From positions 3,906,001-3,970,000 of the forward strand of contig OZ024743.1 in the NCBI GenBank assembly GCA_964016885.1: 64,000 bases of DNA, in the 5' to 3' direction. Made by a program: the position numbers and the translations under genes. The notes under the pieces are model-generated. The model ran no database searches, was not told where the DNA came from, and saw nothing but the letters and a program-made list of their open reading frames with translations. The stretch comes from Eledone cirrhosa (lineage: Eukaryota). This document shows, one piece after another, positions 4,642-61,313 of the stretch. Each line of letters starts with the position of its first letter. Position 1 is the first letter of the stretch.

Positions 4642-5149
<508 letters not shown>

Positions 5150-5166
5150 GTATGCATATATATATG

Positions 5167-6305
<1,139 letters not shown>

Positions 6306-10158: not shown

Positions 10159-10204
<46 letters not shown>

Positions 10205-10210
<6 letters not shown>

Positions 10211-10670
10211 AGATCAAAAGGTGGTTAAAGGAGTTCCATGTATTTTATTATGCGCATTTCAAAAACAAACATCATCATGCAATAATATTTGTGTTTTCAT
10301 CAGATAAAACAGGAGAACATGATATGAAGGCTAAAAAACACTTGTGGATAATGCAGTTTTAAATCAACATATATGTTGATTTGTTGATGATATGTTGATT
10401 TAAAACTGTTGATTTAAAACTGTTGATTTAAAACTGCACTATCCACAAGTGTTTTTTAGCCTTCATATCATGTTCTCCTGTTTTATCTGATGAAAACACA
10501 AGTATTATTGCATGATGATGTTTGTTTTTGAAATGCGCATAATAAAATACATGGAACTCCTTTAACCATCTTTTGATGTTATATTATGTATACTCCAGTC
10601 CTACAAACTGTGGAGTGCTTCTTATCCGATATCTGCATTGCTTTATTGTACTACAATAAAACTCACCTCC

Positions 10671-10727
<57 letters not shown>

Positions 10728-11220
10728 GTGAGGTTTTTTTTACAAAATGAAAAATAACCGAGTGAAAAGTATAAGGAAAAAAGTTTCATGTATTTTATTA
10801 TGCGCATTTCAAAAACAAACATCATCATGCAATAATATTTGTGTTTTCATCAGATAAAACAGGAGAACATGATATGAAGGCTAAAAAACACTTGTGGATA
10901 GTGCAGTTTTAAATCAACATATATGTTGATTTGTTGATGATATGTTGATTTAAAACTGTTGATTTAAAACTGTTGATTTAAAACTGCACTATACACAAGT
11001 GTTTTTTAGCCTTCATATCATGTTCTCCTGTTTTATCTGATGAAAACACAAATATTATTGCATGATGATGTTTGTTTTTGAAATGCGCATAATAAAATAC
11101 ATGGAACTCCTTTAACCATCTTTTGATCTTATATTATGTATACTCCAGTCCTACAAACTGTAGAGTGCTTCTTATCCGATATCTGCATTGCTTTATTGTA
11201 CTACAATAAAACTCACCTCC

Positions 11221-11223: not shown

Positions 11224-11276
<53 letters not shown>

Positions 11277-11283
<7 letters not shown>

Positions 11284-11645
11284 GTGAGGTTTTTTTTACA
11301 AAATGAAAAATAACCGAGTGAAAGTATAACGAAAAAAGATGAAATCGAAAATGCAACTGGAGTCTTATTTAAAAAAATATATATATATTTATTTGGTTCC
11401 TTTTACCGGTTTCGCAGTTCTTCTGCTTTTCAAAAGTTGAGTTGAGATGGAGGGTCTAAAAACCACAGACCCTCCATCTCAACTCTACTTTTGAAAAGCA
11501 GTGCGAAAAGAACTGCGAAACCGGTAAAGAAACCAAATAAATATATATATATTTTTAAAAATAAGACTCCAGTTGCATTTTCGATTTCATCTTTTTTCGT
11601 TATACTTTCACTCGGTTATTTTTCATTTTGTAAAAAAAACCTCAC

Positions 11646-11652
<7 letters not shown>
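11277..11652. mobile_element. Fold-back (palindromic) pLTR-only insertion of the Neptune family with two U3-A8 HHR copies (11400-11437 -, 11488-11529 +)
   Basis: Both arms match the pLTR 3' end (ttagaaagtgagg...) and are flanked by (TA)n. The + copy has an extended stem II (gcagt/actgc) with a different loop. Confidence 0.85.
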
Positions 11653-11727
<75 letters not shown>

Positions 11728-14627: not shown

Positions 14628-14690
14628 ATTTTATCTGATGAAAGCGCACCATAATTTGCTTTGTTGTCCTTGAAATATGTATAATGAAAT
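14628..14690 (+). ncRNA. Degenerate minimal hammerhead
   Basis: attttat-CTGATGA-aag..ctt-GAAA-tatgta-TA-atgaaat, then AATAAA. Stem II is weak. Confidence 0.5.
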
Positions 14691-22375: not shown

Positions 22376-22478
<103 letters not shown>

Positions 22479-22546
22479 AAAAAGGGATGAAATCGAAAAT
22501 GCAACTGAAGTCTTATTTTTTAAAAAATATATATATTTATTTGGTT

Positions 22547-22584
22547 CCTTTACCGGTTTCGCAGTTCTTCTGCTTTTCAAAAGG
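22547..22584 (-). ncRNA. Hammerhead ribozyme U3-A8 variant in 3' pLTR
   Basis: Reverse complement of the 28569-28606 motif. Confidence 0.75.
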
Positions 22585-23095
22585 TGAGTTGAGATGGAGG
22601 GTCTGTGGTTTTTCTCACATCTGGTTGGTCTCTAAATGTTACTTGTTTTATATGGAAAAACTGGCTCGAAAACCAGGTTTTTCGAGAAGTAATTTGATTG
22701 GTTTGTCAATAATTATAATAAATTTCGCGCCAGTTCGCGTTACAATAGTTCTTCAAATAAGAGAGGGGGGGGGGTTGTCACAGGTTGTTTTTTCATATAT
22801 GAGTGTTTGAATTTCTTTTTACTTGAAAAAATGAGGCTCACGAAGGCTTTTTTTTGGTTGGTTATAAATGAAATTTGGCTGTCACGTGAACAAGTTTTCA
22901 TTACATTTTTGCGCCCTTATTTGGAAAACTATTCTGTAGTCTATAGTGAATGTTATAACAATGGAGAGATAGTGGTCAAGGGAAAAGGGATTGGGAGAAA
23001 TGTTCTGGTTCAGTGAATATGGCCAGCTGTCAGAGTTCAGGTGTCAGAGTTCAGATTTTCTATTGAGACTGAAGATATGTGTTTATTTGTGTGCT

Positions 23096-23141
<46 letters not shown>

Positions 23142-23392
23142 TATTGGAAGATGATTCTATTAGTAGAGATGGGGGAGGGAGTTGTGTGTGTGTGTATATG
23201 GGTGTTATGTGTGTGTGTGCGAGTATGTTAGATAGAGAGAATATATATTTTTTGTGTGTGTGTATATATATATGTGTGTAGGAAAGTGGTTCTATTAGTA
23301 GAAATGGGGAGGGTGTTGTAGGTGTGGGGGTTTTTATGTGTGTGTATGGGTGTTATGTGTGTGGGAGTATGGTTAGCATGTTAAGATGAAGA

Positions 23393-23447
<55 letters not shown>

Positions 23448-23651
23448 GTGTGTGTATGTGTGTGTGTAGGAAAATGATTCCTTTAGTAGGAGTATTTTTG
23501 AATGAACATATTTTCCTGACTTTTTCGTGTTTGCTGTTGTATTGCCAGTGCAAACGTATGTTTAAGGTTTATTTAGTTCGGGTTTTTATTTTCTAAAGTA
23601 GGTGTTATGTGTGTGTGTGTATGTCATATTGTGGTGTTGACATAATGTATA

Positions 23652-25400
23652 TTAAACCTTATTTAATGTTGGTCTATATTTTTGAATAAACATATTTTCC
23701 TTATTTATTCGCATTTGTTCTGTTGTATTGTTAGCGCAAAGGTAAAATGGGAAGACTTGGAATTTGGGTGTCTTATTACTTGCGCAAATGTCTAGATGTG
23801 CACTTAGTGGTATTTGTCTCGTGGTTGGATCTCGTAATTGTTGGCGATGAACTGTCATTCTGTTTCTGAGTGTGAGTTTAGTTTGTCCTATATAATCTTC
23901 ATTGCATCCTTTACATTTAATGGCATAAATTAGATTTTTTGATGAGCAAGTGAAGTGATTTTTTACAGTAAAATTTTGTCCTGATTTAAATGTATACGTG
24001 TTGCCTTCAATGAGGTGAGTGCAGGTTCCACAATTAGAGCGACCACATTTTTTGATACTTGGTTGTGGGTTTGTGGTAGGTAATTTGGCATTGGTGAGTA
24101 ATGTTTTCAGTGATTTTGGTTGTCTTTTGCTTTTGATTATTTTGTGTGTTTCAAGGGCTTTTTTCATTCTTGGGTTTTGTTTTAGTAGTGGGATGTTATT
24201 GTGAATAGTGTTGTAAGCTTCCGCATTTCTTGGGTTGTGTGTTGAGATATATGATAGAATATTGGACGTACCTTGAATTTGTTTCTGTTTCCGTAATTCA
24301 TCAATGCCTATTGCTTTAGCCCTTTCTATTCCATTATTTATTAGTAATAGTGGGTACTCTCTCTCAAGTAGAATTTCCTTTAATTCTTGAAGTCTTTTAT
24401 TTCGCGTTTCATAATTGGAGACAATTGTGCAAATTCTTCTTGCTAGGTTAAAAGGAATGTTCGTCTTCGTGTGCTTTGGATGGTTGGAGGTGAATAGCAG
24501 ATATTGTTTGGAATCTGTTGGTTTGTAGTGTATGTCAGTTTCGATATTTGTGTCTTTTTTTGTGATTAAGATGTCCAGAAATGGGAGTTGATCTTGGCTG
24601 TATTCCATTGTGAATTGGATGTGGTTATTGATGCCGTTTATTAAGTTTTTGAAATCCTTCAGTTGGTCGAGTGTGTGGGACCAAAGAATGAGGCAATCAT
24701 CCAAGTAGCGTTTCCAATCCTCTGATAAATATTTGTGGAAGTTCAATCCGTATTTTGATTTGGACTGTTCATATATCTGGACTTCTAAGTATGCCATGAC
24801 TAAGTTGGCATAAGTTGGAGCGGCTTTTGTGCCCATCGCAGTCCCCGATATTTGCTTGTAAGTATTGCCATCGAAATCAAAAAAGTTGTTCTGTAGGATG
24901 AATTTTAATCCCTCGGTGATGAAGCTTTTTTCTATTCTGTCAGGTATCTCATTGGGATATTTCTCTAGCCAGAATCCTATTGCTTGTAGTCCGTATTGGT
25001 GTGGGATTGTTGTGTAGAGATTCACTACATCGAAAGACACAATAATAGTGTCGTTGTTGACATGTTTGGGGAGGTGGTTTAAGAGGTCCAGATCGTCTCT
25101 TACAAGGCTTGGTATGTGTTTCAGTATTGGTTTCAGTAGTATGTCTATAAAGTTGCTCAATCTGTGTGTTTCACATTGTGGGCCCGCTACAATTGGTCTT
25201 AATTTAAGGTCTGTGGGGTATTGTGTGTTCACGCAGGCTGAGGTGGATTGTTTACAGGCATCGTTGATTATTTTACATTTGTGGATCTTCGGAAGTCCGT
25301 AAAGGTTGCTGGTTTTGTATTCAAAATTTGTTAAATAATCGCGTTCCTTTTTAGTTAGGTCTTCCTGGTATCGATAAATCAGTGTGTTTAATTTGGTCAT
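23652..25400 (-). CDS. PLE reverse transcriptase + Cys-rich linker + GIY-YIG endonuclease (main part of ORF2)
   Basis: Motifs LYGLPKIHK, LRPIVAG, SFDVVNLYTTIP, QISGTAMGT, RYLDD, LPFLD, CGRSNCGTC (Neptune-type Zn linker) and NLIYAIKCKGCNEDYIGQT..RMTVH. Confidence 0.95.
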   Translation of the reverse strand: MTKLNTLIYRYQEDLTKKERDYLTNFEYKTSNLYGLPKIHKCKIINDACKQSTSACVNTQYPTDLKLRPIVAGPQCETHRLSNFIDILLKPILKHIPSLVRDDLDLLNHLPKHVNNDTIIVSFDVVNLYTTIPHQYGLQAIGFWLEKYPNEIPDRIEKSFITEGLKFILQNNFFDFDGNTYKQISGTAMGTKAAPTYANLVMAYLEVQIYEQSKSKYGLNFHKYLSEDWKRYLDDCLILWSHTLDQLKDFKNLINGINNHIQFTMEYSQDQLPFLDILITKKDTNIETDIHYKPTDSKQYLLFTSNHPKHTKTNIPFNLARRICTIVSNYETRNKRLQELKEILLEREYPLLLINNGIERAKAIGIDELRKQKQIQGTSNILSYISTHNPRNAEAYNTIHNNIPLLKQNPRMKKALETHKIIKSKRQPKSLKTLLTNAKLPTTNPQPSIKKCGRSNCGTCTHLIEGNTYTFKSGQNFTVKNHFTCSSKNLIYAIKCKGCNEDYIGQTKLTLRNRMTVHRQQLRDPTTRQIPLSAHLDICASNKTPKFQVFPFYLCANNTTEQMRINKENMFIQKYRPTLNKV

Positions 25401-25951
25401 TTTTTTGATTGCTGGTAGTTTTTTACTCTTTCATAGTAATTAGCATTTTGTAAGAGAGAGAACATAGAATTTTTATATTTTTCAGCCTCCATAATGACAA
25501 CAGTACTTCCCTTATCCGCTTCCTTAATTACAATGTCCGGATTGTTTTTTAGTTCATGGATAATCTCCCATTCCCTTCGACTTGTGTTGGGTTTGGGTTT
25601 AGGTTGCGGTAGTTCATGGTATGGGAAGGTAGCTATGTGGTCACAAAATTTGTCCAGAACTCTGTTTCTACCTTTTGTTGGGTTGTAGCTGCTTTTATTC
25701 CGTACAATTGATTCGTCGTTATTCTCCTTGTCAAAGAATTCCTCTGTGAGACGTAATTTTCTACAGAAGTGTGAGATATCGTCATTTATCTCGTTGGGGT
25801 TAGGATATTGTGGTGTTGGTGTGAATTTCAGACCTTTGGAGAGAATTTTTACTTGTTGGGCTGAGAGGTTTGTATTTGAAATGTTAATTATTTTCGGTTT
25901 TTCAAAATCGGTTTGTGCCACCGGGTGTCGTGAGTCCTGTAGCCTTGGTCT
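25397..25951 (-). CDS. N-terminal part of PLE ORF2, separated from the RT part by a 1-nt indel in an A7 run at about 25400
   Basis: IINISNTNLS..ILSKGLKFTPT..FCRKLRL and DIVIKEADKGSTVVIM are typical PLE N-terminal motifs. There is no ATG before them (the ORF track uses GTG). Confidence 0.85.
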   Translation of the reverse strand, partial: RPRLQDSRHPVAQTDFEKPKIINISNTNLSAQQVKILSKGLKFTPTPQYPNPNEINDDISHFCRKLRLTEEFFDKENNDESIVRNKSSYNPTKGRNRVLDKFCDHIATFPYHELPQPKPKPNTSRREWEIIHELKNNPDIVIKEADKGSTVVIMEAEKYKNSMFSLLQNANYYERVKNYQQSKK

Positions 25952-27092
25952 AAAAAATGATTTTTCTGGAATGTTTTTTCATTGGTATTATTATATCTAA
26001 TGGTATTTCCCCTGTTGTTGTGTGGTCTTGTATAGAAGTTTCGGACGTATTGAGGTTCGGTGTGTTGATAGTCCGGGTTGTAGATTTGGTTCCTTTGTGT
26101 GGGTTGGGATCTATGGTTTTGGAACAGGCTCTGTGTGGGCAGGGGTCTACGGTTTTGGAATAGGTTTTGTGTGGGTTGTGATCTGCGGATCAGGTCCTGC
26201 CTTGTGTTCGGGGATCTTTGGTTTTTGTTAGTAGGGTTATAGTTTTGTCTATGGTTTCTGGGATTATCGTTATAGTTTTGCTGGGGGTATGTTGGACGTT
26301 TTGTTACTTTTTTTGTTATTTGTTGTGCATGTGGTGTGTGAGTTTTAGTTTGTTTTAAAAATGGGTTACCTGTATGTTGTTCATTTTTGAAGTCCATTTC
26401 GTAGTTGTTGAACCAGGTGGCGTTTTTTTCCCATCGCTGGAGGGATGTGAGTTCTTCATCCTCACAGTTTTCTTTCCAAAGTTTTAGGGTTTTTTTTTGT
26501 AGAGTAGGCCTTCAGAGTGCTTTGAGATTTCTGTGTCCATCTGTTGGTCGAGTGACTTGAATTTTTCTTCGTTGGAGTTGGCTCTTAATCGCAACAGTTC
26601 TATTTCTGTTTAAAATTTTTCCAATGCCATCTTTTCCCTAAGTCTTTGTTGGTTTTCTGGTTCATTCGGGATGGGTTTTATTTGGAGTTTTTTGGGGAGG
26701 ATGATTGGGGTAGAGTTTAGCCACTTTTCATATATGTCTGCCTTGCCATTATTTTTTAGGAGATTCCAAAGGGCGAATTTGCGGGCTGTGAGCTTTTGAG
26801 TCCATATGTTGATTAGGGTGTTTTTCACTGAGTGGACATCTCGTAGATTGGGTTCTAACGGTTGTTCAAGCTTTTGGAGCATTGTTGTTTCAATGGTTTC
26901 GATTAGCTTAGTTAATACTGGAGTAATATTCGTCTCTTGGGTATTTTCTGTTTCTTCGTGGGGTCCTTTTTTATAGATGTGTATTTGGTCCACTTTGTTG
27001 GTCAAAATTGAGAGTTTAGAGGAAATCTCTTTGAGTTCATTTAAGATGTCCTGGTTCAGTGAGTTGTTGTTTTGTTGAGACTTTGGTGGCAT
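25888..27092 (-). CDS. PLE ORF1 (helical/coiled-coil N-half, Q/N/R/P-rich C-half); one in-frame TAA (26610-26612) and one indel in an A run (~26490)
   Basis: ATG 27092 MPPKSQQ... Reading continues past the TAA as TEIELLRLRANSNEEKFKSLDQQMDTEI, then shifts to LKLWKENCEDEELTSLQRWEKNATWFNNYEMDFKNE and joins ORF 26397-25888. It lies between the 5' pLTR and ORF2. Confidence 0.7.
25951..25957 (-). promoter_or_regulatory. Putative -1 programmed ribosomal frameshift heptamer U_UUU_UUA
   Basis: ORF1 frame reads caT TTT TTA gac. The -1 frame continues AGA CCA AGG CTA ... GTG GCA CAA ACC into ORF2. Confidence 0.7.
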
Positions 27093-27256
27093 TTTCGGTC
27101 TTCGTGTGGTGGGTATATATTAGAAAGTGAGGTTTTTTTTACAAAATGAAAAATAACCGAGGTGTCCTACACGAGTGGAAGTATAAAGAAAAAGGGATGA
27201 AATCGAAAATGCAACTGAAGTCTTATTTTTTTAAAAATATATATATTTATTTGGTT

Positions 27257-27294
27257 CCTTTACCGGTTTCGCAGTTCTTCTGCTTTTCAAAAGG
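27257..27294 (-). ncRNA. Hammerhead ribozyme U3-A8 variant in 5' pLTR
   Basis: Reverse complement of the 28569-28606 motif. Confidence 0.75.
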
Positions 27295-27809
27295 TGAGTT
27301 GAGATGGAGGGTCTGTGGTTTTTCTCACATCTGGTTGGTCTCTAAATGTTACTTGTTTTATATGGAAAAACTGGCTCGAAAACCAGGTTTTTCGAGAAGT
27401 AATTTGATTGGTTTGTCAATAATTATAATAAATTTCGCGCCAGTTCGCGTTACAATAGTTCTTCAAATAAGAGAGGGGGGGGGGGGGGGTTGTCACAGGT
27501 TGTTTTTTCATATATGAGTGTTTGAATTTCTTTTTACTTGAAAAAATGAGGCCCACGAAGGCTTTTTTTGGTTGGTTATAAATGAAATTTGGCTGTCACG
27601 TGAACAAGTTTTCATTACATTTTTGCGCCCTTATTTGGAAAACTATTCTGTAGTCTATAGTGAATGTTATGACAATGGAGAGATAGTGGTCAAGGGAAAA
27701 GGGATTGGGAGAAATGTTCTGGTTCAGTGAATATGGCCAGCTGTCAGAGTTCAGGTGTCAGAGTTCAGACTTTCTATTGAGACTGAAGATATGTGTTTAT
27801 TTGTGTGCT

Positions 27810-27844
<35 letters not shown>

Positions 27845-28568
27845 ATGTGTGTATTGGAAGATGATTCTATTAGTAGAGATGGGGGAGGGAGTTGTGTGTG
27901 TGTGTATATGGGTGTTATGTGTGTGTGTGCGAGTATGTTAGATAGAGAGAATATATATTTTTTGTGTGTGTGTATATATATATGTGTGTAGGAAAGTGGT
28001 TCTATTAGTAGAAATGGGGAGGGTGTTGTAGGTGTGGGGGTTTTTATGTGTGTGTATGGGTGTTATGTGTGTGGGAGTATGGTTAGCATGTTAAGATGAA
28101 GAGAATATATATATATATATATATATATATTGTGTGTGTGTATGTGTGTGTGTAGGAAAATGATTCCTTTAGTAGGAATATTTTTGAATGAACATATTTT
28201 CCTGACTTTTTCGTGTTTGCTGTTGTATTGCCAGTGCAAACGTATGTTTAAGGTTTATTTAGTTCACGTGACAGCCAAATTTCATTTATAACCAACCAAA
28301 AAAAAGCCTTCGTGAGCCTCATTTTTTCAAGTAAAAAGAAATTCAAACACTCATATATGAAAAAACAACCTGTGACAACCCCCCCCCCTCTCTTATTTGA
28401 AGAACTATTGTAACGCGAACTGGCGCGAAATTTATTATAATTATTGACAAACCAATCAAATTACTTCTCGAAAAACCTGGTTTTCGAGCCAGTTTTTCCA
28501 TATAAAACAAGTAACATTTAGAGACCAACCAGATGTGAGAAAAACCACAGACCCTCCATCTCAACTCA

Positions 28569-28606
28569 CCTTTTGAAAAGCAGAAGAACTGCGAAACCGG
28601 TAAAGG
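28569..28606 (+). ncRNA. Minimal type I hammerhead ribozyme, U3-A8 core variant (inverted pLTR copy)
   Basis: cctt-TTGAAAA-gcag aagaa ctgc-GAAA-ccgg-TA-aagg. Stems I and II are intact, stem III is the palindrome ACCGGU, the triplet is GUA, and AATAAA follows. Confidence 0.75.
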
Positions 28607-28736
28607 AACCAAATAAATATATATATTTTTAAAAAAATAAGACTTCAGTTGCATTTTCGATTTCATCCCTTTTTCTTTATACTTCCACTCGTGTAGGACA
28701 CCTCGGTTATTTTTCATTTTGTAAAAAAAACCTCAC

Positions 28737-28817
<81 letters not shown>

Positions 28818-29853: not shown

Positions 29854-29964
29854 GGTTTTGAGTTCGGATCCAGTGTAGTGGCATTTTGACAATGACATGT
29901 GAGTAACATTGAGTAGTTGGAAACTGTTTGGAAACGCGACCAATATATTTATGTATATATATAT

Positions 29965-31441
29965 ATCTATCGTTTCTGAATTTGTTTAGCAAGATTCTTT
30001 ATCTGAAAACGTGTGTTGAAACCGATATTGTTATGCTTTGGGAGGGTCATGTTGCCAATAAGAAACACACGCACGCGCTGCTTTCACTCCAATTTATTAT
30101 AAATTAAATTTATGAATTTAAGAATTTATAAATTTCCGGTTGGTTGGTTGGTTCCACAACCGGGCGGTTGTTCATATATTGTCAAATTTCTTTCGTCACA
30201 CATTCTGTGACCTCTTCAGTGACTGGTGATTCTTTTCTTTGTTTTGTGTCTCTCTCTCCTTTGTTTTGTCCTACGCCAACTTGTTTTTGTGTGTGTTGTG
30301 TGCTTAGTTGGCGCATGTGTTACATCCGGGTGTCTGTGTGTTTTTTTATTTGTTTATTTATTTGTTTATTTATATGTTACTGGTTGGTTGTTTGTTCTAT
30401 GTGTGTGTGTGTTCATTTTGTCCTTAATTGTAAGTTGTGATGTTGCTATTGCATTCATGTTTTCTATTTAATTTTGGTTGGAGTTCATTTATGTTTATAG
30501 CCTCTGTGATTTGTCTAAACATTGTGTCTTTTCTGTGTGTAGATTCTATTTTTATTTCTATGTTCTCTAATTTACCTTTATGTTCTATTTTAGCATGTTG
30601 GTGGAGTACAGATGATTCTTTTCTATCTTGAAGCTCTCGCCAGTGTCCATTTATCCGTTCTCTTATACTACAAGCTGTCTCACCTATGTACACTATATTC
30701 TTATCTCTACATTGTCCTTCAGTACATCTTATGCTATATACTACATTTCTAGTTTTACAGTTAATATGGGGGCTTATTTTACATAGGTGAGACAGCTCGT
30801 AGTATAGGAGAACGGATAAATGAACACTGGCGAGAGCTTCAAGATAGAAAAGAATCATCTGTACTCCACCAACATGCTATAATAGAACAACTGGGTAAAT
30901 TAGAAAACAGAAATAAAAATAGAATCTACACACAGAAAAGACGCAATGTTTAGACAAATCACAGAGGCAATAAACATAAATGAACTACAACCAAAATTAA
31001 ATAGAAAACATGAATGGAATAGCAACATCCCAATTTACAATTAAGGACAACATGAAAACACACACACACATAGAACAAACAACCAACCAGTAACATGTAA
31101 ATAAACAAATAAATAAACAAATATAAACACACACAGACACCCGGATGTAACACATGCGCAAACTAAGCAAACAATACACACAAAAACAAGATGGCGTAGG
31201 ACAAAACAAAGGAGAGAGAGGCACAAAACAAAGAAAAGAATCCCCAGTCACTGAAGAGGTCACATAATGTGTGACGAAAGAACTTTGACAATATATGAAC
31301 AACCGTCCGGTTTTGGAACCAACCAACCAACCAACCAGAAATTTATAAATTCTTAAATTTATAAATTTAATTTATAATAAATTGGAGTTAAAGCAACTAG
31401 TGCGTGTGTTTCTTATTGTCAACATGACCCTCCCAAAGCAT

Positions 31442-31447
<6 letters not shown>
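29965..31447. mobile_element. Fold-back PLE insertion: GIY-YIG fragment + pLTR in both orientations
   Basis: CKTRNVVYSIRCTEGQC..VYIGET..RERINGH (30424-30780 -) with an inverted copy at 30782-31447. HHRs lie in both arms and the flanks are (TA)n. Confidence 0.9.
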
Positions 31448-31492
<45 letters not shown>

Positions 31493-36129: not shown

Positions 36130-36335
36130 GTATCTGGGTATTGACAGAATCTGTAAGGCTTTGCGGCATAGAGTTACGACATTTTAACTTCTGAGTTCAA
36201 ATCCCGCCGAGGTTAGCTTTGCCTTTTATCCTTACGGGGTCGATAAAATAAAGCACTAGTTATGCACTGGGGGCAATTTAATCGATTTCCCATCCCCCAA
36301 AACTGTTGGTTTTGTGCCTAAATCAGAAACAATTA
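36130..36335 (+). mobile_element. SINE copy
   Basis: B-box, core and tail are present. Confidence 0.8.
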
Positions 36336-36368
36336 TCAATACCTACTTTGAACATATATATATGAAAG

Positions 36369-36660: not shown

Positions 36661-36790
36661 ACCAGAAAGATCACGGCCAGTTAGGATGTCAACTATCTTT
36701 TTTGTAAATATATATCTATATTACTTATTTTGTTTAAAAAAAACAATAGTTAATTTGTGAAAATATTAGTTACAATAGGCCAATATATTG

Positions 36791-37005
36791 GTTTCTTATA
36801 TAGGCACAAGGTCAGCAACTTTGGGGGAGAGGAAAGTCGATTAAATTGACCCCAGTGCGCGACTGGTACTTTATTTTATCGACCTCGTAAGGATGAAAGG
36901 CAAAGTTAATCTCGGCGGGATATGAACTCAGATCATACAGGGTCATAACTCTATGCGGCAAAGCATGGCGTCCGAGCCTCTACCGATACTGCCAATCCAC
37001 CGCCC
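36791..37005 (-). mobile_element. Full-length tRNA-derived SINE
   Basis: A-box-like TGGCAGTATCGG, B-box-like GAGTTCATATCCC, and core GCCTTTCATCCTTACGAGGTCGATAAAATAAAGTACCAG. TSD includes GGCCAATATATTG. Confidence 0.85.
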
Positions 37006-37792
37006 TAAAATGGGCCAATATATTGAAAATACAATCGCATATTTTTTCTTTCTGAAATGTATTTTATTTATTCTATGTGGTTGGTGGGTTCACTTTCAAC
37101 TATAGTATTATGTTGTCTGATTATCTATTAGTGTTATGAAGCCTGTAATGGGTGTATGATGATTTGTTATTCAATAATATGTAATAACTATTTAGTAAGC
37201 TTTAAATGTTATGCTATTCCTGTTATTTATGAATACGTAATGTTGTAAATGAGGATTTATCGCTGGGGAGGTTGTTAAAATATTTGTTTCAATGTTTGAA
37301 TTACTGCTCATGTTGAGTTTCATTTTTTCCTTTTCCTCACGTTTAGCTATTTCATTTTTATATGTCAGCTCAAGAGATATTTTGACACATCTTCGCATGC
37401 AAGTTAGCTGTGAATATTTATGTTTTTTTTACCATAATTATCTACATATTATGCACTGTCAAAATTATGATATAAATAAATTATTTCCAATTTTATATCG
37501 AACGATATTGAACAATAAAGTTACATTAATATAGTCAATTTGAATTTATAGTTAATACATTTAAAATTAAAGAGTGAAATTAAAATGTTATGTTTTATTC
37601 TAAATTTTTGAAATTTGATTTTACGTTAATAACTGGAAACTAAAATTAAAATTGAATTAAAATTACTCAAAATAAATGTTTCAACTACTGGCACAAGGCC
37701 AGAAATTTGGTTTATGTTATACATAAAACTTTACATCGAAATATATATAATGAAATAGAGATCATATAAAGTATATATCTTTCGTTTATTAC

Positions 37793-38215: not shown

Positions 38216-38650
38216 TTTTTGCATTATATATATTTCAATGACATGGTTATGCAATGGGTATATCATTAACAAGTTTCCATGTGAAGACCTGTCAACTCTA
38301 CCTGTCCGGCGGGGAGATCTCCCACCCACTTTGGGGTGGGTGAGAGATGTCTTCCCTTGTGAAAATGGGTATAGCTTTCATTATGTAAAATCTCCCCATT
38401 TTGCCACATTTCTCCCCGTTTTGGGGCACGTCTTTTCATGGTACTCTCCGTTTAGGTTTTTAGATTTTGGCAGGTCTGCATGTGACACCATCAGATACTC
38501 ATACAATGTCGTTATACAAGTATGCAGATATGCCGCCAGTAACGTATTACCATCACGGTATGATACATCTGATGATGTGATGTCACATGGAAAATATTAA
38601 TGATATAGCCATTACACAACCATGGCATTGAAATATATATAATGTAATAA
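38216..38650. mobile_element. Inverted-repeat-bounded element, probable PLE end, with HHR-like motif at 38566-38602
   Basis: About 50-bp inverted repeats; cat-CTGATGA-tgtga tg tcaca tg-GAAA-atat-TA-atg. Confidence 0.5.
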
Positions 38651-39181: not shown

Positions 39182-39288
39182 CAAATCCCGCCGAGGTTAA
39201 CTTTGCCTTTCATCCTTGCGGGGTCGATGAAATAAAGTACCAGTAATGCACTGGAATAATTGCTGGCCTTGTGCCAAAAGTAGAAATA
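39182..39288 (+). mobile_element. 5'-truncated SINE, TSD ATTATTGAA
   Basis: TSD at 39173-39181 and 39289-39297. Confidence 0.85.
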
Positions 39289-39393
39289 ATTATTGAAAAG
39301 ATAACATTATTGAAAAAATCAAAGGGACAATTCTTTAAAAAAAAAAGTTTTATAAAGTATATAAAGTATTACTGGTCTTGATGTATTATTAAA

Positions 39394-39576
39394 GGTGGAT
39401 AGGCAGTATCGGTAGAGGCTTGGACGCCATGCTTTGCAGCAAAGAGTTACGGCCCTTTATGGTCTGAGTTCAAATCCCGCCAAGGTTAACTTTGCCTTTC
39501 ATCCTTACGGGGTCGATAAAATAAAGTACCAATAATGTACTGGGTATTTACGGGCCTTGTGCCATAAGTAGAAATA
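39394..39576 (+). mobile_element. SINE copy, TSD ATTATTAAA
   Basis: Same family; TSD at 39385-39393 and 39577-39585. Confidence 0.85.
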
Positions 39577-39965
39577 ATTATTAAAATTCATCTTATCAAA
39601 TGTTGAGTATTGAAATAAAAATTAAAAAGAATTAATAGGAGTTAAAAACTAAAAATTAAAGATTTAAAATTAAAATCAAATGTTGGAGTAAGTTTTCTTC
39701 CATCTTTCCTGCTCAAAATTAGGCTGGACAATGAGTTCTTGTTAATAGAGAGGTGGTAGTGAAGATAGCAGCAGCTGTGTTTCTTCACAGAACAAAGTTG
39801 TTTTTTCGAAACATCCTGTAAATATGTGTGTATATATGTGATTGTGTTAATTGACTGGTCAAGAGTTCAAAAGAGGATGGGCAACTGTAAGGTAGAGGTA
39901 AGTTCTATGGCAGTAGTAGGAGTGTAAGAGAAATTCTATTATTAGAATATGGTTTTAGGGAGTGC

Positions 39966-41092: not shown

Positions 41093-41130
41093 ATAAAACA
41101 ATTGTTACTATCTGAAATAAAGCCCCTTGT

Positions 41131-41386
41131 TGTACAGCCAACCATGTTACTCTTCATTCTCTCACTATTATTACTCCATGTACAGCCAACCATGTTACTC
41201 TTCATTCTCTCACTATTATTACTCCATGTACAGCCAACCATGTTACTCTTCATTCTCTCACTATTATTACTCCATGTACAGCCAACCATGTTACTCTTCA
41301 TTCTCTCACTATTATTACTCCATGTACAGCCAACCATGTTACTCTTCATTCTCTCACTATTATTACTCCATGTACAACCAACCATG
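41131..41386 (+). repeat. 48-bp tandem repeat, about 5.3 near-identical copies
   Basis: Unit tgtacagccaaccatgttactcttcattctctcactattattactcca. Confidence 0.95.
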
Positions 41387-41490
41387 GAAACATCTTGTTG
41401 AGTCAAACAAAGCCGTACGTTAAAACTATCCACGACGCAGAGTACTCACCACGTCTAACTGGATTACCTATGACGATAACTTGTTATCCC

Positions 41491-41623
<133 letters not shown>

Positions 41624-43130
41624 ATAAAATATTATGTAGGTAGGTATGTGTGAATTTAGAACAGAAACTGCATGTAAAAACAGCCAGAAACAATAATATC
41701 GATATACATTTCTAATTTATGTTGACGTGGCACACGGTTGTTTTTGTGGAAAAGGCTATAATCAATTAAATCGACCTCGACTCTAATACCCAACAGAGTT
41801 TTCTCATTGATTTTTCTGTTCAGCTGGCGTAAGGCCTAATTTTACCAGAGAAAAACCCAGATAAATCATTTGAAGCGATACGACTATATTTTAATCGTAT
41901 ATTTTCAAGCTCAGGGCGATGAATGAAGTCCCTCTAAAAACAAACCGAACAATACCTGAACTTTCAACAGTAAAATATAGGAGTTGTCAGGGCCAAATTC
42001 CTAGTCCAATGTTCTAATTTATCCAATAACTTCGCAAATCTATTAACAATAGTCACATAATTAAAAAAAAAAGTATAGTTTGAGCTAATTTCCTGATTAA
42101 ATAACAACGGTTTCTTCATTAGAAGTATAATATAATAATAATGAGGGATGAACGTCAGTATATCTTGACGTTCACAAGTTTTTCAATACAATTCTTGATT
42201 TCAATTTACTGAGAGAATGAATTCCCTAAACGTTTCCTGCCACACATCATTACGCTTAAATGTGCTCGTATACGACACCTAAGAAAATAAAATCACACAC
42301 GGTAAACTCTAGCATATTGGTAAATTTAATCGTTGAGGAATCCAGTTCTCGACTAACATATATAGACAGTTATACGCAGATAGGTAAATGTATTTTTAGT
42401 AGCTTAGAGAACAGAATTAATTTTGCATGTTGTTTCAAGTAGAAAAGTCAAATGAATAATCTTTTTATATAAACAATTGCAAATTTCATCTAAATATTGC
42501 AATTCCACATTTTATTTCTATCCACTGAAGATATTTCAATTTTCATTCTGAGAAATATATTATTTATTATTTACATTCCTATCTATTTGCTGTCAAGGAT
42601 ACCCATCCAGGAGTGATTGGCATTCCATTCAATATCGTTTCTTTTTTATTGACATAAATTTGGTGTTTAAAATCTATCAGGATTTTAGAAGCAGTTTTGC
42701 TTTTCTATCTTCATTTTTATAAATCTTAATATATTAGAGTGTAACAAAATAGTGTACTATGAAGGAACAAATATAATAAAAGGATAAAGCTGAGAGAAAA
42801 TTCTAACTGCTTGTCAAATGTTGTTCAGGGATTCGATTTGCAATAAGCGAGGTTCAATTAAATTATCACACAATCATATCCCGCCATAAAACTTCCTGAC
42901 ATGAAAAACGTGCTACTTATAGATAATTATTCATTATAACACTACAATCAACTCATAATTTTCTCTGAGTTCAACGCCGCAATTATCAAGTCATTGTTAT
43001 TGTATTTCAACTGTTATCTTCACTTTGCATCGAGTGTATACAGAAAATGGGTTAATATCTTAATCTGGTACACTACACAAATCTCACATTAAACAAAACA
43101 AACGGGCTAACGTAATCTAGATGTATTTCC

Positions 43131-43181
<51 letters not shown>

Positions 43182-43605
43182 CACACACACTCACATATAT
43201 ATATGTATATATATGTATGTATATGAAGAAAAACGATAAAGTTTCGTTTACATGTATTTAGTTTTTTATTGTGTATCGACCTGTTACGTAGAAAATTGAC
43301 AGTGACTTCGAAATTTTAGCCCGGATTCGTATATCCCATGATACAGAAATAGCTGGTTTGAAACTGAAGTATTCCATCACGTTATAAGGGTAGGAAGAAC
43401 TTCTTATTCTTGGATGACATTCTCCCAAGAGCTGGTGTTTGATTACAATTTCGTTGATAATTATCAACGAAATTGTACGCAAACCCGTAAAATCAGCAGC
43501 CTTTTATTTCCAAGAAGTATAAGATTTAACCCTAGTTGAAAACTATCTAATTTGAAAGAGTGCTTCTCTCGCCTTGGCTAACAATCCTCCATTATGAATG
43601 AAAAT

Positions 43606-43718
43606 CTGAGTTCAAATCCCGCCGAGGTTGACTTTGCCTCTCATCCTTACGGGGTCGATAAAATAAAGTACCAGTGATGCACTGGGTAATTGCTGGCCTT
43701 GTGCCTAAAGTAGAAACA
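43606..43718 (+). mobile_element. 5'-truncated SINE, 15-bp TSD ATTATGAATGAAAAT
   Basis: TSD at 43591-43605 and 43719-43733. Confidence 0.85.
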
Positions 43719-45294
43719 ATTATGAATGAAAATGTGAAAGGATGATATCATTGACAACCCTTCCACCGAAACATCTAGGGAAGGCACCAAAAACAGGACT
43801 CGTTGAAGTCTGTGAAATTAAAGCTCTCCGTAGCACGCATGAGTAGGTCCATGTCGGTTGTCATTCAATGCTACAAATATAATAACCCTAGTTTAGGAAA
43901 ACAACAAAATTGCAAACATTTTCTAAAACTTCGTTAAAATTGTTTGAGAATTTAAAGGGAAGAGGAGGACACAATAATGAACAACCAGATGCATAAAGAA
44001 GCAAAGAGATTTAGAGTGATATACGAAACAAGATGATGAGTCACAATGAGGATATGTAGTGGAGAGGATCAGTAGAACATGAATTAAGACCAGGGAAACA
44101 GCAAATCATTATAATAATCATTAAAAACAAGCTAAAAAACTATTTGATTGGAAGGAACTCAGACCAGAAGGACAGCAAGATTTCTCACCGCGAGTGTGTC
44201 TCTGTGTTTGTGTAAATATGTGTGTATGTGTGTTGTGACTATGAACAAAACAAAAATGTAATTGGAATGAATAATAAACATAAATATATGTTCTTGAATA
44301 AACAGAAGCCGTGACAATGCAGTGCAATATTTCTTTAAAAAATAAATGACACTTTTTTTCCTTAGTCGATAATTCAATCTTAAAATATGATATTCCGGGA
44401 ATTAGATCACAATTGAAAATAACATTTGAGTTCACATGGTTAGATGCAACACGACAGTATTTACGAGAATTTAGTTTCATCGATCGAATATCTGTCGTAA
44501 TACTGTCGCAAGTGTATCAGTGAAGCGAAGTTTTCCTATTACACTTTACAATTCTTGAATCTAAGATCAGCAGGAGTCATCAAATTGCAACGGCTGAACA
44601 CTTCTTGTGTGATTTTCTTTTTTTAAAAAAGAAGATATTTGAAGCATTGCAATTTTGTATTTGAATGCAAAGAATATATGTCAATTCAAATAACTATTTT
44701 AAAATAAATTATTTCGAAATACAGATAAATGATAATAGAATATTTCGTTTCACCGACTCACTACTTCTGATCTATAAATTATAGGTGGAAAAATCATTTA
44801 ACCAACACATTTGACTTGGGATAGGCAGGGCTCCTTGACCCTTTAGCATTTACATAACTTTATATATACTATTTTATTTTTGTGGTAAAGATTTTACCTC
44901 ATAAAATTCTCAGAGAGAACCTCGATTGATGAACCAAATTATCCTAAATTCTGTCCTGCCCCACATGGTTTAACTGGACCAAATGAACCGGTTATTTAAT
45001 GCACCTCGTATCTAAAATAAATTTAATTTATTCAAAAAACAAAAAATATTTTAATTATAATCATAGCTTCTGTTTAAATACAATTTCAAACACATTTCCT
45101 CAACAAAATTTATATACATGTATAACTTTAATAATAATAACAGTGTTGCTATTATGCTATTATTGGGTATATACATAACCAGAAGGTTTAAAGCACAATA
45201 TATATAGTAATAATAATTAATAATTATGAAGACTTATATATATATATATAGTAATAATAATTATGATGGTTGGAACAGGTAAAAGAATAAAAGA

Positions 45295-47495: not shown

Positions 47496-47710
47496 AACAA
47501 GGCCACCAATTATCCCAGTGCATTACTGGTACTTTATTGCACTGGGATAATTGCTGGCCTTGTGTCAAAAGTAGAAACAATTATTACTGTTTTACTCGAT
47601 AAAATAAAGTACCAGTAATACACTGGGATAATTGCTGATCTTGTGCCAAAAGTAGAAACAACTATTACTGTTTTACTACTGGCCTTGTGCCAAAATATTG
47701 TTTTACTTAT
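47496..47710. repeat. Rearranged array of SINE 3' tails (one inverted, then three tandem)
   Basis: Repeated gcactgggataattgctggccttgtg..aaaagtagaaacaattattactgttttact. Confidence 0.7.
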
Positions 47711-48640: not shown

Positions 48641-48957
48641 GGAAGTGAGTATAAGGAGGGTGAGAGAGAGAGAAGATCACGTGAAGAAAACCTAAAATAC
48701 AAACTCATTGTTGTGGTAGAGAGATGTGCAGGCAGATAATACTACCTGACCTGCTGCATCAATTTTATCACACGGCTCAGTTTCAGTATGGCTTCTGTTT
48801 GTTTCTTACATTAACATTCCTATCAATCAAAATGAATCACTTGTAAACATGACATGTATGTTATAATTTCCTTATACCACCACCACCGCCACCATTACCT
48901 TATCACCAGCGGCAGGAATTGTAACATAAAGTTCGATATCTTAGTAAAACTAATAAT

Positions 48958-49347
48958 AATGGTTTCTGATTTAGGCACAAGGCCGACAATGTTGGGGAAG
49001 AGAAAGTCGATTAGATCGTCCCCAGTGCATTACTGGTACTTTATTTTATCGACCCTGTAAGGATGAAAATGCTCCAAAGCATATTATCCGACGCTCTACC
49101 GATACTGCCAATCAACCACCCTTAAATAATTGTTTCTTATATAGGCACAAGACCAGCAATTTTGGGGGAGGGGAAAGTCGATTAAATCGACTTCAGTGCG
49201 TGACTGGTACTTTATTTTATCAACCCAGTAAGGATGAAAGGCAAAGTTAACCTTGGCGGGATTTGAACTCAGATCATAAAGGGCCGTAACTCTATGCTGA
49301 AAAGCATGGCGTACGACCCTCCACCGATGCTGCCAATCCACCGCCCT
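48958..49347 (-). mobile_element. Two adjacent SINE copies (48958-49122 internally deleted; 49128-49347)
   Basis: Homology to the family. Confidence 0.8.
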
Positions 49348-49409
49348 ACCACCCTTAAATAATAATAATAAAAATAATGGCCAGCAATTTTGGAGGGAAA
49401 GGGGAACTG

Positions 49410-51950: not shown

Positions 51951-52034
51951 CAACAGCTGTGCTGACTTACTTATCGTTCATCACACCAGATAATATGGGA
52001 CCGTTGTACTCTCTCATGAAAGTATCATTGTGAA

Positions 52035-52212
52035 TTGGCAGTATCGGTAGAGAGTTGGACGCCATGCTTTGCAGCATAGTTACGTCCCTTTACGATCTGA
52101 GTTCAAATCCCGCCGAGGTTAACTTTGCCTTTCATCCTTACGGGGTCGATAAAATAAAGTGCCAGTAATTACTGGGTAATTGCTGGCTTTGTGCCAAAAG
52201 TAGAAACAATTA
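52035..52212 (+). mobile_element. SINE copy
   Basis: Homology to the family. Confidence 0.82.
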
Positions 52213-55200
52213 TTAGAACTTAGCACTTCTCACGGAAGTCAACTAGAGTATTTCGTGACGAAAAATTTCATAAAGAAATGAAGAAGGTTGACGGTCTCGT
52301 AGAGGCTCTAGGCATTGATAAAGATCAAGAGAACACTTGATTTAGGGATAATGGAAACGTTCGAGAATTTTCTGCTTTAGCGTGCTACCGGAAGTATTGC
52401 TAGTTAGAGATACATTCTAAGAGCATGGAAGCCACTTCATCATTGCTTGTCTGAGATTATAATGATAGAATTTGTTTGAAGGAAAACAGCATATGTTGCA
52501 ATATATTAACTACTTCCTTATTTCAGGGTCTGGTTGGGGAGCCGATTTAGTCGCCGACTACTCAACCATGAAGCAGGTTGTACTGAGTTATATGGTACTA
52601 GTAGCAGGCAGAAGCCTGACTTGACCATTTTGTATCTTAGTCTTGTTAAGTCTCTTACTCTCCTGTCGAGAATATAATAACTCCAATGATTATGTGTAAC
52701 AGGTTATTTCTGTTACCTTATACTTTTCTTTTATATTTGATTTAATAATTTAAGTATTAACGTCGTACATCTGTAATATTTTTTCCGAAACATTTATCTC
52801 ATTTCTTATTGAAATTGTCTATTTCATTAATTGCTAAGTATGTGTTGGTCTGTATTTCGTTGAATTTTCTTATATCTGATACTATATGTTTGTAGTGATT
52901 TTAATTAATCTTCTTCTCTTCAATGTTGTCTTGACGCATTTTCTAACTTGGTTTCCGTATCAATTTCTCTGGTAAACAAATGTGCTGTCGGCAGAATTAT
53001 TATTCTTTGTACAGTATACTTGAACATGATTGATTGATATTCCATAGGATGTGGATCTCAGTCGTGTTTGGTTAAATTTTTGTTTAAAGACAAAAAAGAG
53101 AGGAGAGAAAGAGTCTCATTGGAAGTTCCCCTTTTTATACGGGCAGAATGTGCTTATATAATTTCCAATTTTGCCTGTATCTGCACATCTGTTTGCCATA
53201 TGTTCGTGACATGTTTAATACACTTGCATATTACTGGTGCAAATGACTCCAGGATTCGTTGTAAAAAGAAAGGCCTTGTATTCTGTCACTGCCGTCTCCA
53301 AATTTTTATTGTTTTATTCTACATGTTTTCCTGGGAGGTGGCAGTAGCAGGAGGTTGAGACCTTGGGTCATCTTTAAGAATCTCCCTTTCCTTCCTAAAT
53401 TCAGCTGCCCACCTGGGCACTGTTGATAAAGCTGGAGTGTCATCCCCCAAAGTAGGCACTATGTCAGCATGAATGTCGTTGGGGGCTAAATCCTCTTTCT
53501 GCCAGTTCTACATAACACCATGAAGCCAAACCCTGTCCAGTTTCAAGAGAAGTCGCTGCTAGTTACTTTTAAAGTCTAAAACAATGCAATTACCGATAAG
53601 AAGAGTTGCAATTAATGCGTTAGATTTCAGAGTTCTAGCATCACTCCTTCATGGTCAGCCTATCAACTTTTCCGCCCACCCTCGTAACTAGATTAATAAT
53701 TTGAAGGTTAGGATTTGATGTTTACAAATATATAATTCGTTTCAGGATCCATTTGATACTCTGCAAGGGAGCTGTTTGCTTTTTAGGCAGTTATTTATAC
53801 AATGGGATAGTATTTTAGTTGAGGTGATTTAAGCTGTAGAAACACAGGTTATGGTTCTGAAGGGTTAGATGTTTGCTATTTCTCTAGATTTAGGGTTATG
53901 GTGAGGATATCCTTTATGGGCCCCATTCAATTGGTTGTTGTTTTGGGGCATTCTTTTCAGTTATAAAAGCCTCTATCAATATTCAGGTACTGGATTAGCT
54001 GTTGTCACGTGGAGCAATCGGTTTTCTGCCCATTATCGTTCCTAAACCAATTTTACTTTCTGTACTCTTAACATTGCATTAATCCTGTGCCTAAATCAGA
54101 AACTATTAATTTCTAATTCATCTTAGTTTCATGTTAAACTGTTTTTGTTTCTCCATGTTATACCAGCACCTGGATGCTGAGTACCTTTAGCTGTACTCAC
54201 TAGTTTGCACGCATTCTGACCAGACCTTCGGTTACCTTTCGACATTCGAGTCTTATAATCCTTGAAAATGATTTGGGACACTAGTATTTTTCCTAACTGA
54301 GTATTTAAAAAAATGTGGTTTGCTTTTTATTGCTACTACTATATTAGCATTAAGGCTTACTGTAGTCAATGCACAGATCCTTTATCGATTCTAATTATTT
54401 AATGGGCTACATCTTTATATCATTTTCATATTCTGAATTTTCCATTCCTAAATTATTCTCAAATTCTTGTATATGTTTGATTCTGTTGTTATACTTGGCA
54501 TTAATTGTACTGAGTATTGGCATTTACTTGTTTGTTTTGTACATATTATGCATTATCCATATTGTTAGCTTAAATTGTATGTAATTGGTTGCATTTCTCT
54601 GTTTGTGATTTCATTATTTATTTGATTTTCTATGTTTTCTGATATCGTCTTAAGTTTGAACTTGTATCATCTTCAAATAACTTGTCTGTAGAAATGCAAA
54701 GTTATTTTCAAATAAGTGATGTTTACATATATCAAATGTGGATAATGCAGTGTCGCCTCGTGCTTGAGGTAGAGTGTAGTTATAAAACGTGCATTTAGTA
54801 TAGAAAATTGCTCATATGTTATGTTGCATGCATTTAAGAATAAAGTAAATCCAGATTCTTTAGATTTTCTACAAGTATCGGTGCATATTTCTATTAATAT
54901 AGAATCTCCACGCTCCATTTCAACTGAATGATACGTATTGTTTGTCATATCTTTCGACGCAATGGGGGTTGATCTTATTTGCTGGTGGTGTGACGTGCGC
55001 CAGTTTAGTGTATATCCATGTGGTGGCAAGACAGCATTAAGACCAGTTTCTAATACATTAACTTAAAAAGCAATGTTATTATAAGTAAAAAGCTACAGAC
55101 TTCCTAACACGTTTTTGCCATTTTATTCAAACCCAATTTAAGCAATTTTAATGGATATTGTCCGGAGCAGAGAAGTCATGTTATGCATCACATGAATTGA

Positions 55201-60323: not shown

Positions 60324-60440
60324 AGGAAAAAAGGTGAAATCGAAAATGCAACTGGAGTCTTTTTTTAAAAAATATATATTCATTTGGTTCCTTTACCAGT
60401 TTCGCAGTTCTTGTGCTTTTCAAAAGTAGAACCGAGATGG
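60322..60440 (-). mobile_element. Truncated pLTR of the same Neptune family with a mutated HHR (60390-60427)
   Basis: Homologous to 22474-22620. Confidence 0.8.
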
Positions 60441-60960: not shown

Positions 60961-61049
60961 TAACACGGGGAAAGCACGTGAATGTTTAGTCAACATTTTC
61001 GGTCGTTGTATAATGGTTAATATTGCTTCTGAAGATATACAATACGTAA

Positions 61050-61177
61050 TAATTGTTTCTAGTTTAGGCACAAGGCCAGCAAATACCCAGTACATTACTG
61101 GTACTTTATTTTATCGACCCCGTAAGGATGAAAGGCAAAGTTAACCTCGGCGAGATTTGAACTCAGACTGCAAAGGG
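61050..61177 (-). mobile_element. SINE copy (partial)
   Basis: Homology to the family. Confidence 0.8.
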
Positions 61178-61313
61178 ATACTTTATATTCATTATATTTT
61201 CCCTCTTTTACTAAATTGCAATAATATAAACAGTAGTTGAATAAGATGTATTGAATTGCTTATATTTGTATAGCTATTAAATGCTTTAAGAAATCTACTG
61301 TTGTCTCATCTTG

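Follow-up and report, generated by a model that had tools for sequence, protein, structure and literature searches.

A minimal hammerhead fold with a U3-A8 core pair in the pLTRs of a Penelope-like retrotransposon of Eledone cirrhosa

A short motif resembling a hammerhead ribozyme, with U at position 3 and A at position 8 of its core, recurs in a 64,000-nucleotide stretch of the Eledone cirrhosa genome (GenBank assembly GCA_964016885.1, contig OZ024743.1, positions 3,906,001 to 3,970,000; referred to below as the window and numbered from its first letter). The locus raises the question of what this motif is, whether it could cleave RNA, and what part cleavage would then play in the movement of the Penelope-like element (PLE) that carries it. 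Six copies lie in the window, as follows.

28569..28606, + strand: copy in an inverted truncated pLTR; stem I CCUU/AAGG, stem II 28580-28592, GAAA 28593-28596, U3 28573, A8 28578, palindrome ACCGGU 28596-28601, predicted cut after A17 at 28602
27257..27294, − strand, sense to the ORF: hammerhead of the 5′ direct pLTR; U3 27290, A17 27261
22547..22584, − strand, sense to the ORF: hammerhead of the 3′ direct pLTR; U3 22580, A17 22551
11488..11529, + strand: solo truncated copy; loop II with a 6-nt insertion, stem I of 3 bp
11399..11436 (copy 11400), − strand: solo truncated copy; extra A past the cut site, stem I of just 2 bp
60390..60426, − strand: solo copy, diverged; ACUGGU as helix III, stem II with its fourth pair broken

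Read 5′ to 3′, the 28569 copy is CCUU / UUGAAAA / GCAG-AAGAA-CUGC / GAAA / CCGG / UA^ / AAGG, and the 27257 hammerhead is identical to it in sequence. The strands are thus mixed, with 28569 antisense to the ORF and to both direct pLTRs, and 11488 and 11400 forming an inverted pair (inverted repeat 11224-11709). As the initial annotation had stated, the core reads UUGAAAA (U3, A8) in 6/6 copies; it is followed by stem II, GAAA, a 6-nt helix III and GUA. The same annotation described a conserved stem II with a varying loop and a stem III consisting of just the palindrome ACCGGU, and both descriptions hold in the main but need correction: stem II (GCAG/CUGC, closed by G10.1-C11.1) is intact in five of the six copies and reduced to 3 bp in 60390, loop II differs only through the insertion in 11488, and helix III is ACCGGU in five copies, while the ACUGGU of 60390 still pairs via G-U. 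Stem I is open-ended (type I); three copies have 4 bp of it, two have 3 bp, and 11400 has 2 bp. All six copies fit the type I minimal hammerhead core N3-U-G-A-N-N8-A ... G-A-A-A ... U-H with a Watson-Crick 3-8 pair. The spare base between A9 and G10.1 that is common, though not universal, in minimal hammerheads is absent here, as it is in two of the related loci described below (L001, L014). On sequence grounds, it is a type I hammerhead fold of the minimal kind whose core pair is U3-A8, set in a PLE pLTR.

A structural descriptor recovered five of the six copies in the window, against a background for the U-core descriptor of 0.07 strict and 0.33 relaxed matches per resampled 64-kb window (30 resamples). 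Because the six copies belong to one repeat family by descent, they count as one occurrence, and their agreement is not covariation; that occurrence sits in the pLTR of a PLE, a place in which a hammerhead is to be expected. A literal CUGANGA search does miss the motif, as had been predicted, since the core reads UUGAAAA. No hammerhead family appeared among 141 Rfam matches at E ≤ 1, which were mostly microsatellite-driven miRNA; Rfam also misses the C3-G8 hammerheads of the window, so its failure is not due to U3-A8 alone. In the older copy at 60390-60433, a longer stem I interrupted by a 2-nt bulge is possible (GGUUC-UA-CUU with AAG-GAACC), and the UA allele of this form is the majority in raw reads, so the 4-bp CCUU stem I may be derived. 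A strong splice-donor look-alike (AAG-GTGAGT) and a look-alike acceptor occur on the strand complementary to the ribozyme; they were discounted as probably a by-product of the motif read in reverse complement, and no clear sense-strand acceptor was found at this element for an intron ending at stem I, as in the Penelope of D. virilis.

The element that carries the two direct copies is laid out as follows.

23652..27092, − strand: PLE ORF; ATG at 27092, in-frame stop at 26612
near 26486-26514, 25890-25981 and 25399-25433, − strand: three frame changes in the ORF
24654..25097, − strand: reverse transcriptase (RT) core; Pfam RVT_1, E 2.6e-6, slightly below the curated cut-off; YLDD at 24696-24707
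24021..24047, − strand: CX4CxxC linker CGRSNCGTC between RT and endonuclease
23664..23936, − strand: C-terminal GIY-YIG endonuclease with CCHH motif; Pfam PF01541, E 8.5e-7, above the cut-off
27182..28265, − strand: 5′ direct pLTR, a partial upstream tandem copy
22472..23579, − strand: 3′ direct pLTR, with a (TA)n(GA)n microsatellite at its end
28262..28749, + strand: inverted 5′-truncated copy of pLTR and tail, ending in (TA)n(GA)n
27114..27181, − strand: tail-like extension between two alternative 3′ ends, directly upstream of the ORF

Spanning about 3.4 kb, the ORF region is long and its N-terminal part is of low complexity; the RT, linker and GIY-YIG domain all fall within the last 592 residues of the ORF. 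Of 7992 candidates scored in a protein search, 2250 were homologues, and the best of those with a name came from Octopus bimaculoides (74% identity). Among 34 aligned sequences, C506, C509 and H528 of the CCHH motif are invariant and H545 nearly so, and the three linker cysteines are invariant. The direct pLTRs share 1074 identities with 5 mismatches, and the inverted copy matches 27114-27605 with 486 identities and 1 mismatch; the ATG lies about 170 nt beyond the cut site, and both ends of the element are flanked by (TA)n(GA)n. The order RT then GIY-YIG/CCHH, the direct pLTRs, the adjacent inverted truncated copy and the tail are those of a C-terminal EN+ PLE; direct pLTRs with such a copy and a tail are the standard PLE layout, and a CX2-5CxxC linker between RT and endonuclease is typical of Neptune and Nematis (PMC8557442, in the parts that treat them). 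By this linker definition, and judged from sequence, the element is a C-terminal EN+ PLE of Neptune or Nematis type, the RT tree described below being one without named references. The identity of the motif as a pLTR hammerhead, as first annotated, is therefore upheld by its place inside the pLTR of a PLE with RT, CX4CxxC and GIY-YIG. The element does not belong with Naiad/Chlamys (N-terminal EN+), as its endonuclease is C-terminal and a hammerhead is present, nor with the non-LTR retrozymes, as the copies flank a coding element or are solo or inverted fragments, and the six copies in the window include no short head-to-tail array of hammerhead units. Some of the ORF breaks fall at homopolymer runs and may be read errors; with its ORF broken, this copy would be movable only in trans. 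The 28569 copy is likely a by-product of insertion.

Further hammerhead-like motifs and repeats lie elsewhere in the window.

4762-5048: inverted repeat with two C3-G8 hammerhead-like motifs (cores 4959, +, and 4852, −)
10198-11142: nested inverted repeats holding four C3-G8 hammerhead-like motifs (10303, −; 10487, +; 10853, −; 11037, +)
38559-38609: solo C3-G8 minimal hammerhead-like motif; helix III AAUAUU, A17
29943-31449 and 5206-6226: second repeat family, in long inverted arrangements
30427-30876, − strand: GIY-YIG remnant in the second repeat family; Pfam E 6e-4, 35% identity to the main element over 48 aa
32839-33023, 36158-36336, 36782-37007, 39182-39586 and 43604-43723: dispersed repeats of 120-230 nt, 80-94% alike, in both orientations
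47596-47668, 48952-49348, 52030-52218 and 61046-61178: further copies of the dispersed family
41116-41643: tandem array with a 48-nt period, yielding open frames of 150-175 codons

The motifs at 4762-5048 have a long stem II, a 7-bp stem I, CCACUGG in the middle of helix III, and A17, and this repeat probably represents the pLTR ends of another PLE family. Those at 10198-11142 have the palindrome AUGCGCAU and an 8-bp stem I, with a related motif at 14635 (+). In the second repeat family (29943-31449 and 5206-6226), the descriptor picked up no hammerhead. At 1513-1797, translation gives a weak match (30%, E 1e-5) to a PLE-protein homologue, possibly another PLE remnant, and the dispersed family appears SINE- or MITE-like in its sequence.

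Covariation at positions 3 and 8 had been chosen beforehand as the test of the core pair, and it was found across related families but not within this one. The comparison covered 86 loci with a related RT (the best 80 of 348 confirmed metagenome loci, and 6 genome loci), searched with a descriptor in which positions 3, 7 and 8 and helix III were left free. This gave 33 rows with 30 distinct motifs, in 25 of which positions 3 and 8 are Watson-Crick (17 C-G, 5 U-A, 2 A-U and 1 G-C). Helix III is strictly palindromic in 21 of the 30, and 20 of those 21 are Watson-Crick at 3/8, compared with 3.3 matches, 1.0 Watson-Crick and 0 palindromic per replicate in resampled controls (20 replicates). On an RT tree of the window and 19 loci, whose labels assume that the nearest downstream hammerhead is part of the RT-bearing element, the six U3-A8 rows require six changes, at least four of them forced by strong branches. 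L047 (U3-A8) and L053 (C3-G8) are sisters (support 96/94) with near-identical stems, and the window falls in a seven-row clade with five C3-G8 and two U3-A8 rows. In this clade together with L014, the middle of helix III varies and stays self-complementary (CAUG, CGCG, CCGG, CUAG, ACGU), and L007 combines C3-G8 with the same ACCGGU as the window motif. The 3-8 pair has thus flipped several times independently among PLE families.

Two rows have weak or ambiguous stems (L082, L084). Kept outside the tree were six rows as probable chance matches (L027, on the minus strand, L038, L049, L055, L080 and L083), five whose motif is not downstream of the RT match on its strand (L014, L026, L029, L046 and L071), and two duplicates (L073, L074). 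Two well-formed minimal hammerheads with palindromic helix III carry other pairs: A3-U8 at L023:1969 (+), with the core AUGAGUA, downstream of a PLE RT, and G3-C8 at L071:117 (+), with the core GUGAACA. As read from their sequences, these are candidate forms, rarer swaps of the 3-8 pair; a phrase search for 'A3-U8' in the hammerhead literature, most subscription papers being out of reach, found none. L081-L086 hold PLE genes of animal type, with hammerheads in their pLTRs, and come from short contigs in bacterial genome bins (SUP05, Bacteroidota, Campylobacteraceae); they are likely host DNA that was wrongly binned.

Within the window's own family, figures rest on contigs and reads, two further organisms (E and F) with one contig each being left out of the counts. 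No change at 3% or more is listed at 27284-27290 in contigs of four runs (n = 4951, 7, 126 and 9). Because 27221-27261 is skipped in the contigs as a repeat, they are silent on copy ends at the cut site. In raw RAD-seq reads of two runs (2048 and 2194), changes with at least 12 start places in both runs occur at no fewer than 12 of 93 sites, including C11.1 to U (which keeps a G-U pair), the distal pair of stem II and the outer pair of stem I. Among the variants listed, none reaches that number at a core or palindrome site, core changes having at most 9 start places. The lack of lineage-level change at the 16 core and palindrome sites, given 12 such changes among 93, has P = 0.09 and is not significant. 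U3-A8 thus appears essentially fixed within the family, with no covariation of its own as far as these sequences go, and stem I is 3 bp in most family reads (27294/27295 allele). Read ends pile up at 27299 and 27404 in the RAD-seq data and were considered as a 5′ boundary upstream of the ribozyme; they are likely a restriction artefact, because AATT stands at 27401-27404 and the 27298 allele creates another at 27297-27300.

Folding, by secondary-structure prediction that is blind to tertiary contacts, agrees with the earlier claim that helix III forms only between two copies. In a monomer, the active topology lies at −0.4 kcal/mol against a minimum of −7.5 kcal/mol, and the probability of the A15.1-U16.1 pair is 0.000. 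For two copies, the double hammerhead lies at −18.6 kcal/mol against −0.8 kcal/mol for two monomer folds, and with two separate strands the free minimum coincides with the dimer forced through helix III (−22.5 kcal/mol, against −15.0 kcal/mol for two monomers). A single copy is therefore predicted to be unable to form helix III, while two copies are predicted to form one of 6 bp. Stem II has a pairing probability of 0.81; in native 300-nt context, the direct copies hold stem I in register at a probability of only 0.06 and 0.15. The short stem I, its low register probability in that context and the absent spare base after A9 count against the reading favoured below.

The dimer fold further contains a pair between U3 and A17, with a probability of 0.59 here compared with 0.00 in 13/13 hammerheads of other families. 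The other folded U3-A8 hammerheads have U17 or C17 (5/5), L084 with an alternative A17 register. Modelled in this way, the U3-A17 pair is predicted to compete with the active core and so to be inhibitory. By analogy, it may be the mirror image of the C3-G17 pair, the reason proposed in passages of PMC3884650 for the impairment of minimal hammerheads by G17. A U3-A17 pair in hammerheads was not found by phrase in the literature, most subscription papers being out of reach, and the predicted trap is the single fresh detail of this example. Lunse et al. may already cover U3-A8 or A17 variants. It is conceivable, if on balance doubtful, that the 3-8 swap makes this pair into a trap over the cleavage site, so that the ribozyme is braked and freed only by the dimer together with the element's protein, and the RNA is mostly kept intact for reverse transcription.

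As to what cleavage would do for the element, the A17 sites of the direct pLTRs (27261 and 22551) are 4710 nt apart on the same, sense strand. The initial annotation had proposed that two pLTR copies in one transcript delimit a unit of about 4.7 kb; this spacing bears out the unit exactly for 27257 and 22547, but the copy it had singled out, 28569, is antisense. In a read-through RNA begun beyond 28749, the inverted copy would base-pair with the 27257 ribozyme over its full 38 bases, and 28569 would act as an antisense blocker of the 5′ ribozyme rather than as its partner. All six copies in the window span the cut site, none starting or stopping there. Two positions account for their 3′ ends: some 74-79 nt beyond the cut site in 22547 and 60390, and, in 28569, 147 nt beyond it, at a further terminal sequence that 11400 and 11488 share. 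Copies that run across the site imply that the copied RNA was continuous there, either uncut or re-ligated, and a linear cut unit would need a precise template jump to serve as their template.

The reading favoured here, with moderate confidence, is that slow, dimer-dependent and probably protein-assisted cleavage frees a unit-length RNA, and that cDNA is primed downstream on an uncut or circular template. Two same-strand copies would pair via their ACCGGU palindromes and allow a slow cut after GUA. If one sense transcript covers the two direct pLTRs, or two transcripts meet in trans, the cuts would fall at 27261 and 22551; cutting at both pLTRs would release the 4710-nt unit out of read-through RNA, probably with the element's protein assisting. 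The start of reverse transcription would lie some 80 or 147 nt beyond the cut site, on an RNA template unbroken at that site and either uncut or re-ligated to a circle, and copying beyond one unit length would yield the upstream pLTR. The two 3′ ends and the continuity of the RNA across the site match the Poseidon element PAc of Anolis. As reported in parts of PMC11167929, the PAc ribozyme cleaved in vitro only with the element's protein, ribozyme mutants left insertion unchanged, RNA-seq ends at the ribozyme site were absent, and reverse transcription begins at two internal sites that define the tail. The need for protein, the unchanged insertion and the missing ends also weigh against the favoured reading.

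A stricter version would have the two pLTR ribozymes of one transcript pair in cis and cut efficiently, with the excised 4.7-kb unit, linear or circular, as an obligatory intermediate. The 4710-nt spacing on the sense strand and the favourable double-hammerhead fold speak for it, and a circle would account for the seamless GUA-AAGG junction and for a copy longer than one unit, as proposed in the relevant part of PMC4209133. However, a linear cut unit cannot template the site-spanning copies (6/6), the minimal PLE hammerheads are slow in vitro (PMC4209133, as described there), the main substrate of the Anolis element is, in the part of PMC11167929 that addresses it, uncut RNA, and the U3-A17 trap is predicted to slow cleavage, so efficient obligatory excision is held to be unlikely. 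Somewhat less probable again is a real but nearly silent fold, shut by U3-A17 and the short stem I and carried along beside the start of reverse transcription. The predicted trap (by analogy with C3-G17, PMC3884650, as far as that source goes), the erosion of stems I and II in many family members, the non-significant within-family core conservation and, in passages of PMC8557442, the spread of Naiad PLEs without canonical hammerheads are all in keeping with it, but U3-A8 took two compensating changes from the C3-G8 of the closest relatives, which suggests selection when the core arose, and the only frequent changes in stem II leave its core-proximal pair able to form, as C11.1 to U keeps G-U. 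Lastly, a chance match in A/T-rich repeat DNA, multiplied by repeat copying, would fit the descent of all six copies from one repeat, the A/U-rich core and the lack of a hammerhead match in Rfam, but is very improbable given the strict background per resampled window, the covariation, and the position of the motif on the sense strand in a pLTR like that of its closest relatives, whose hammerheads share the layout with a 4-nt palindrome. Slow, dimer-dependent cleavage with priming downstream of the cut site thus remains the preferred explanation.

Much of this has precedent. In the parts consulted, PMC4209133 describes minimal hammerheads in pLTRs of metazoan PLEs, Neptune included; most of the published ones have the spare base after A9. 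It further describes U3-A8 cores, with about 1,300 matches in the PLE pLTRs of Schistosoma mansoni, palindromic helix III with uncleaved monomers, low dimer cleavage and opposite-strand pairs, and a proposed excision and circularisation of unit-length RNA. The dimer model is also reviewed in passages of PMC6765202, which cite Lunse et al., and a part of a bioRxiv preprint (10.64898/2026.07.22.740005) links retrozymes to pLTRs. For PLEs, the literature thus already contains U3-A8 cores, palindromic helix III, cleavage as dimers and the excision/circle model. The earlier remark that dimer cleavage had been proposed for minimal PLE hammerheads is accurate on this evidence (PMC4209133); the label 'non-canonical' overstates the novelty of the swap. 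A literature search by title found no octopus Penelope hammerhead ribozymes.

The closest published case among U3-A8 forms is that of the Cercyon PLEs of S. mansoni (Sm3/Sm4; Cervera and De la Pena 2014, PMC4209133, here and below as far as its relevant parts go), which share the type I minimal form, U3-A8 and palindromic helix III, likewise with a dimer model and with solo and opposite-strand copies; the Sm4 row in Fig. S3 of that paper reads UUGAAAAA. By comparison, the present motif has a Neptune-type host, no spare base after A9, a stem II of 3-4 bp, a 6-nt palindrome rather than the 4-nt ACGU, and A17 in place of U17. In the same figure, the row for Marsupenaeus japonicus shares the lack of the spare base, a 4-bp stem II and A17, and has the 6-nt palindromic helix III AGCGCU, but differs in having C3-G8. 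With the Neptune clade, as portrayed in passages of Craig et al. 2021 (PMC8557442), the element shares the RT, the CX2-5CxxC linker, the GIY-YIG/CCHH order, the pLTRs with an inverted truncated copy and a tail, the microsatellite targets and the pLTR hammerhead. PAc of Anolis carolinensis (Frangieh et al. 2024, PMC11167929, in the parts describing it) shares the hammerhead at the pLTR-ORF junction and two genomic 3′ ends downstream of it that define the tail; it differs in C3-G8, in an ORF start inside the ribozyme and in a tail of 30-40 nt, while the two ends here are about 68 nt apart. The natural U3-A8 core variants of Perreault et al. 2011 (PMC3088659) show the same compensatory 3-8 swap and are stated to be active in vitro, the passages on them making no tie to PLEs or to minimal dimer forms. 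Against these known systems, the present example adds a very repetitive Neptune-type family to the class. It offers a usable, though not unique, test case: the element is young, its two ribozymes are identical and lie 4710 nt apart, a third copy is antisense, and a U3-A17 brake is predicted.
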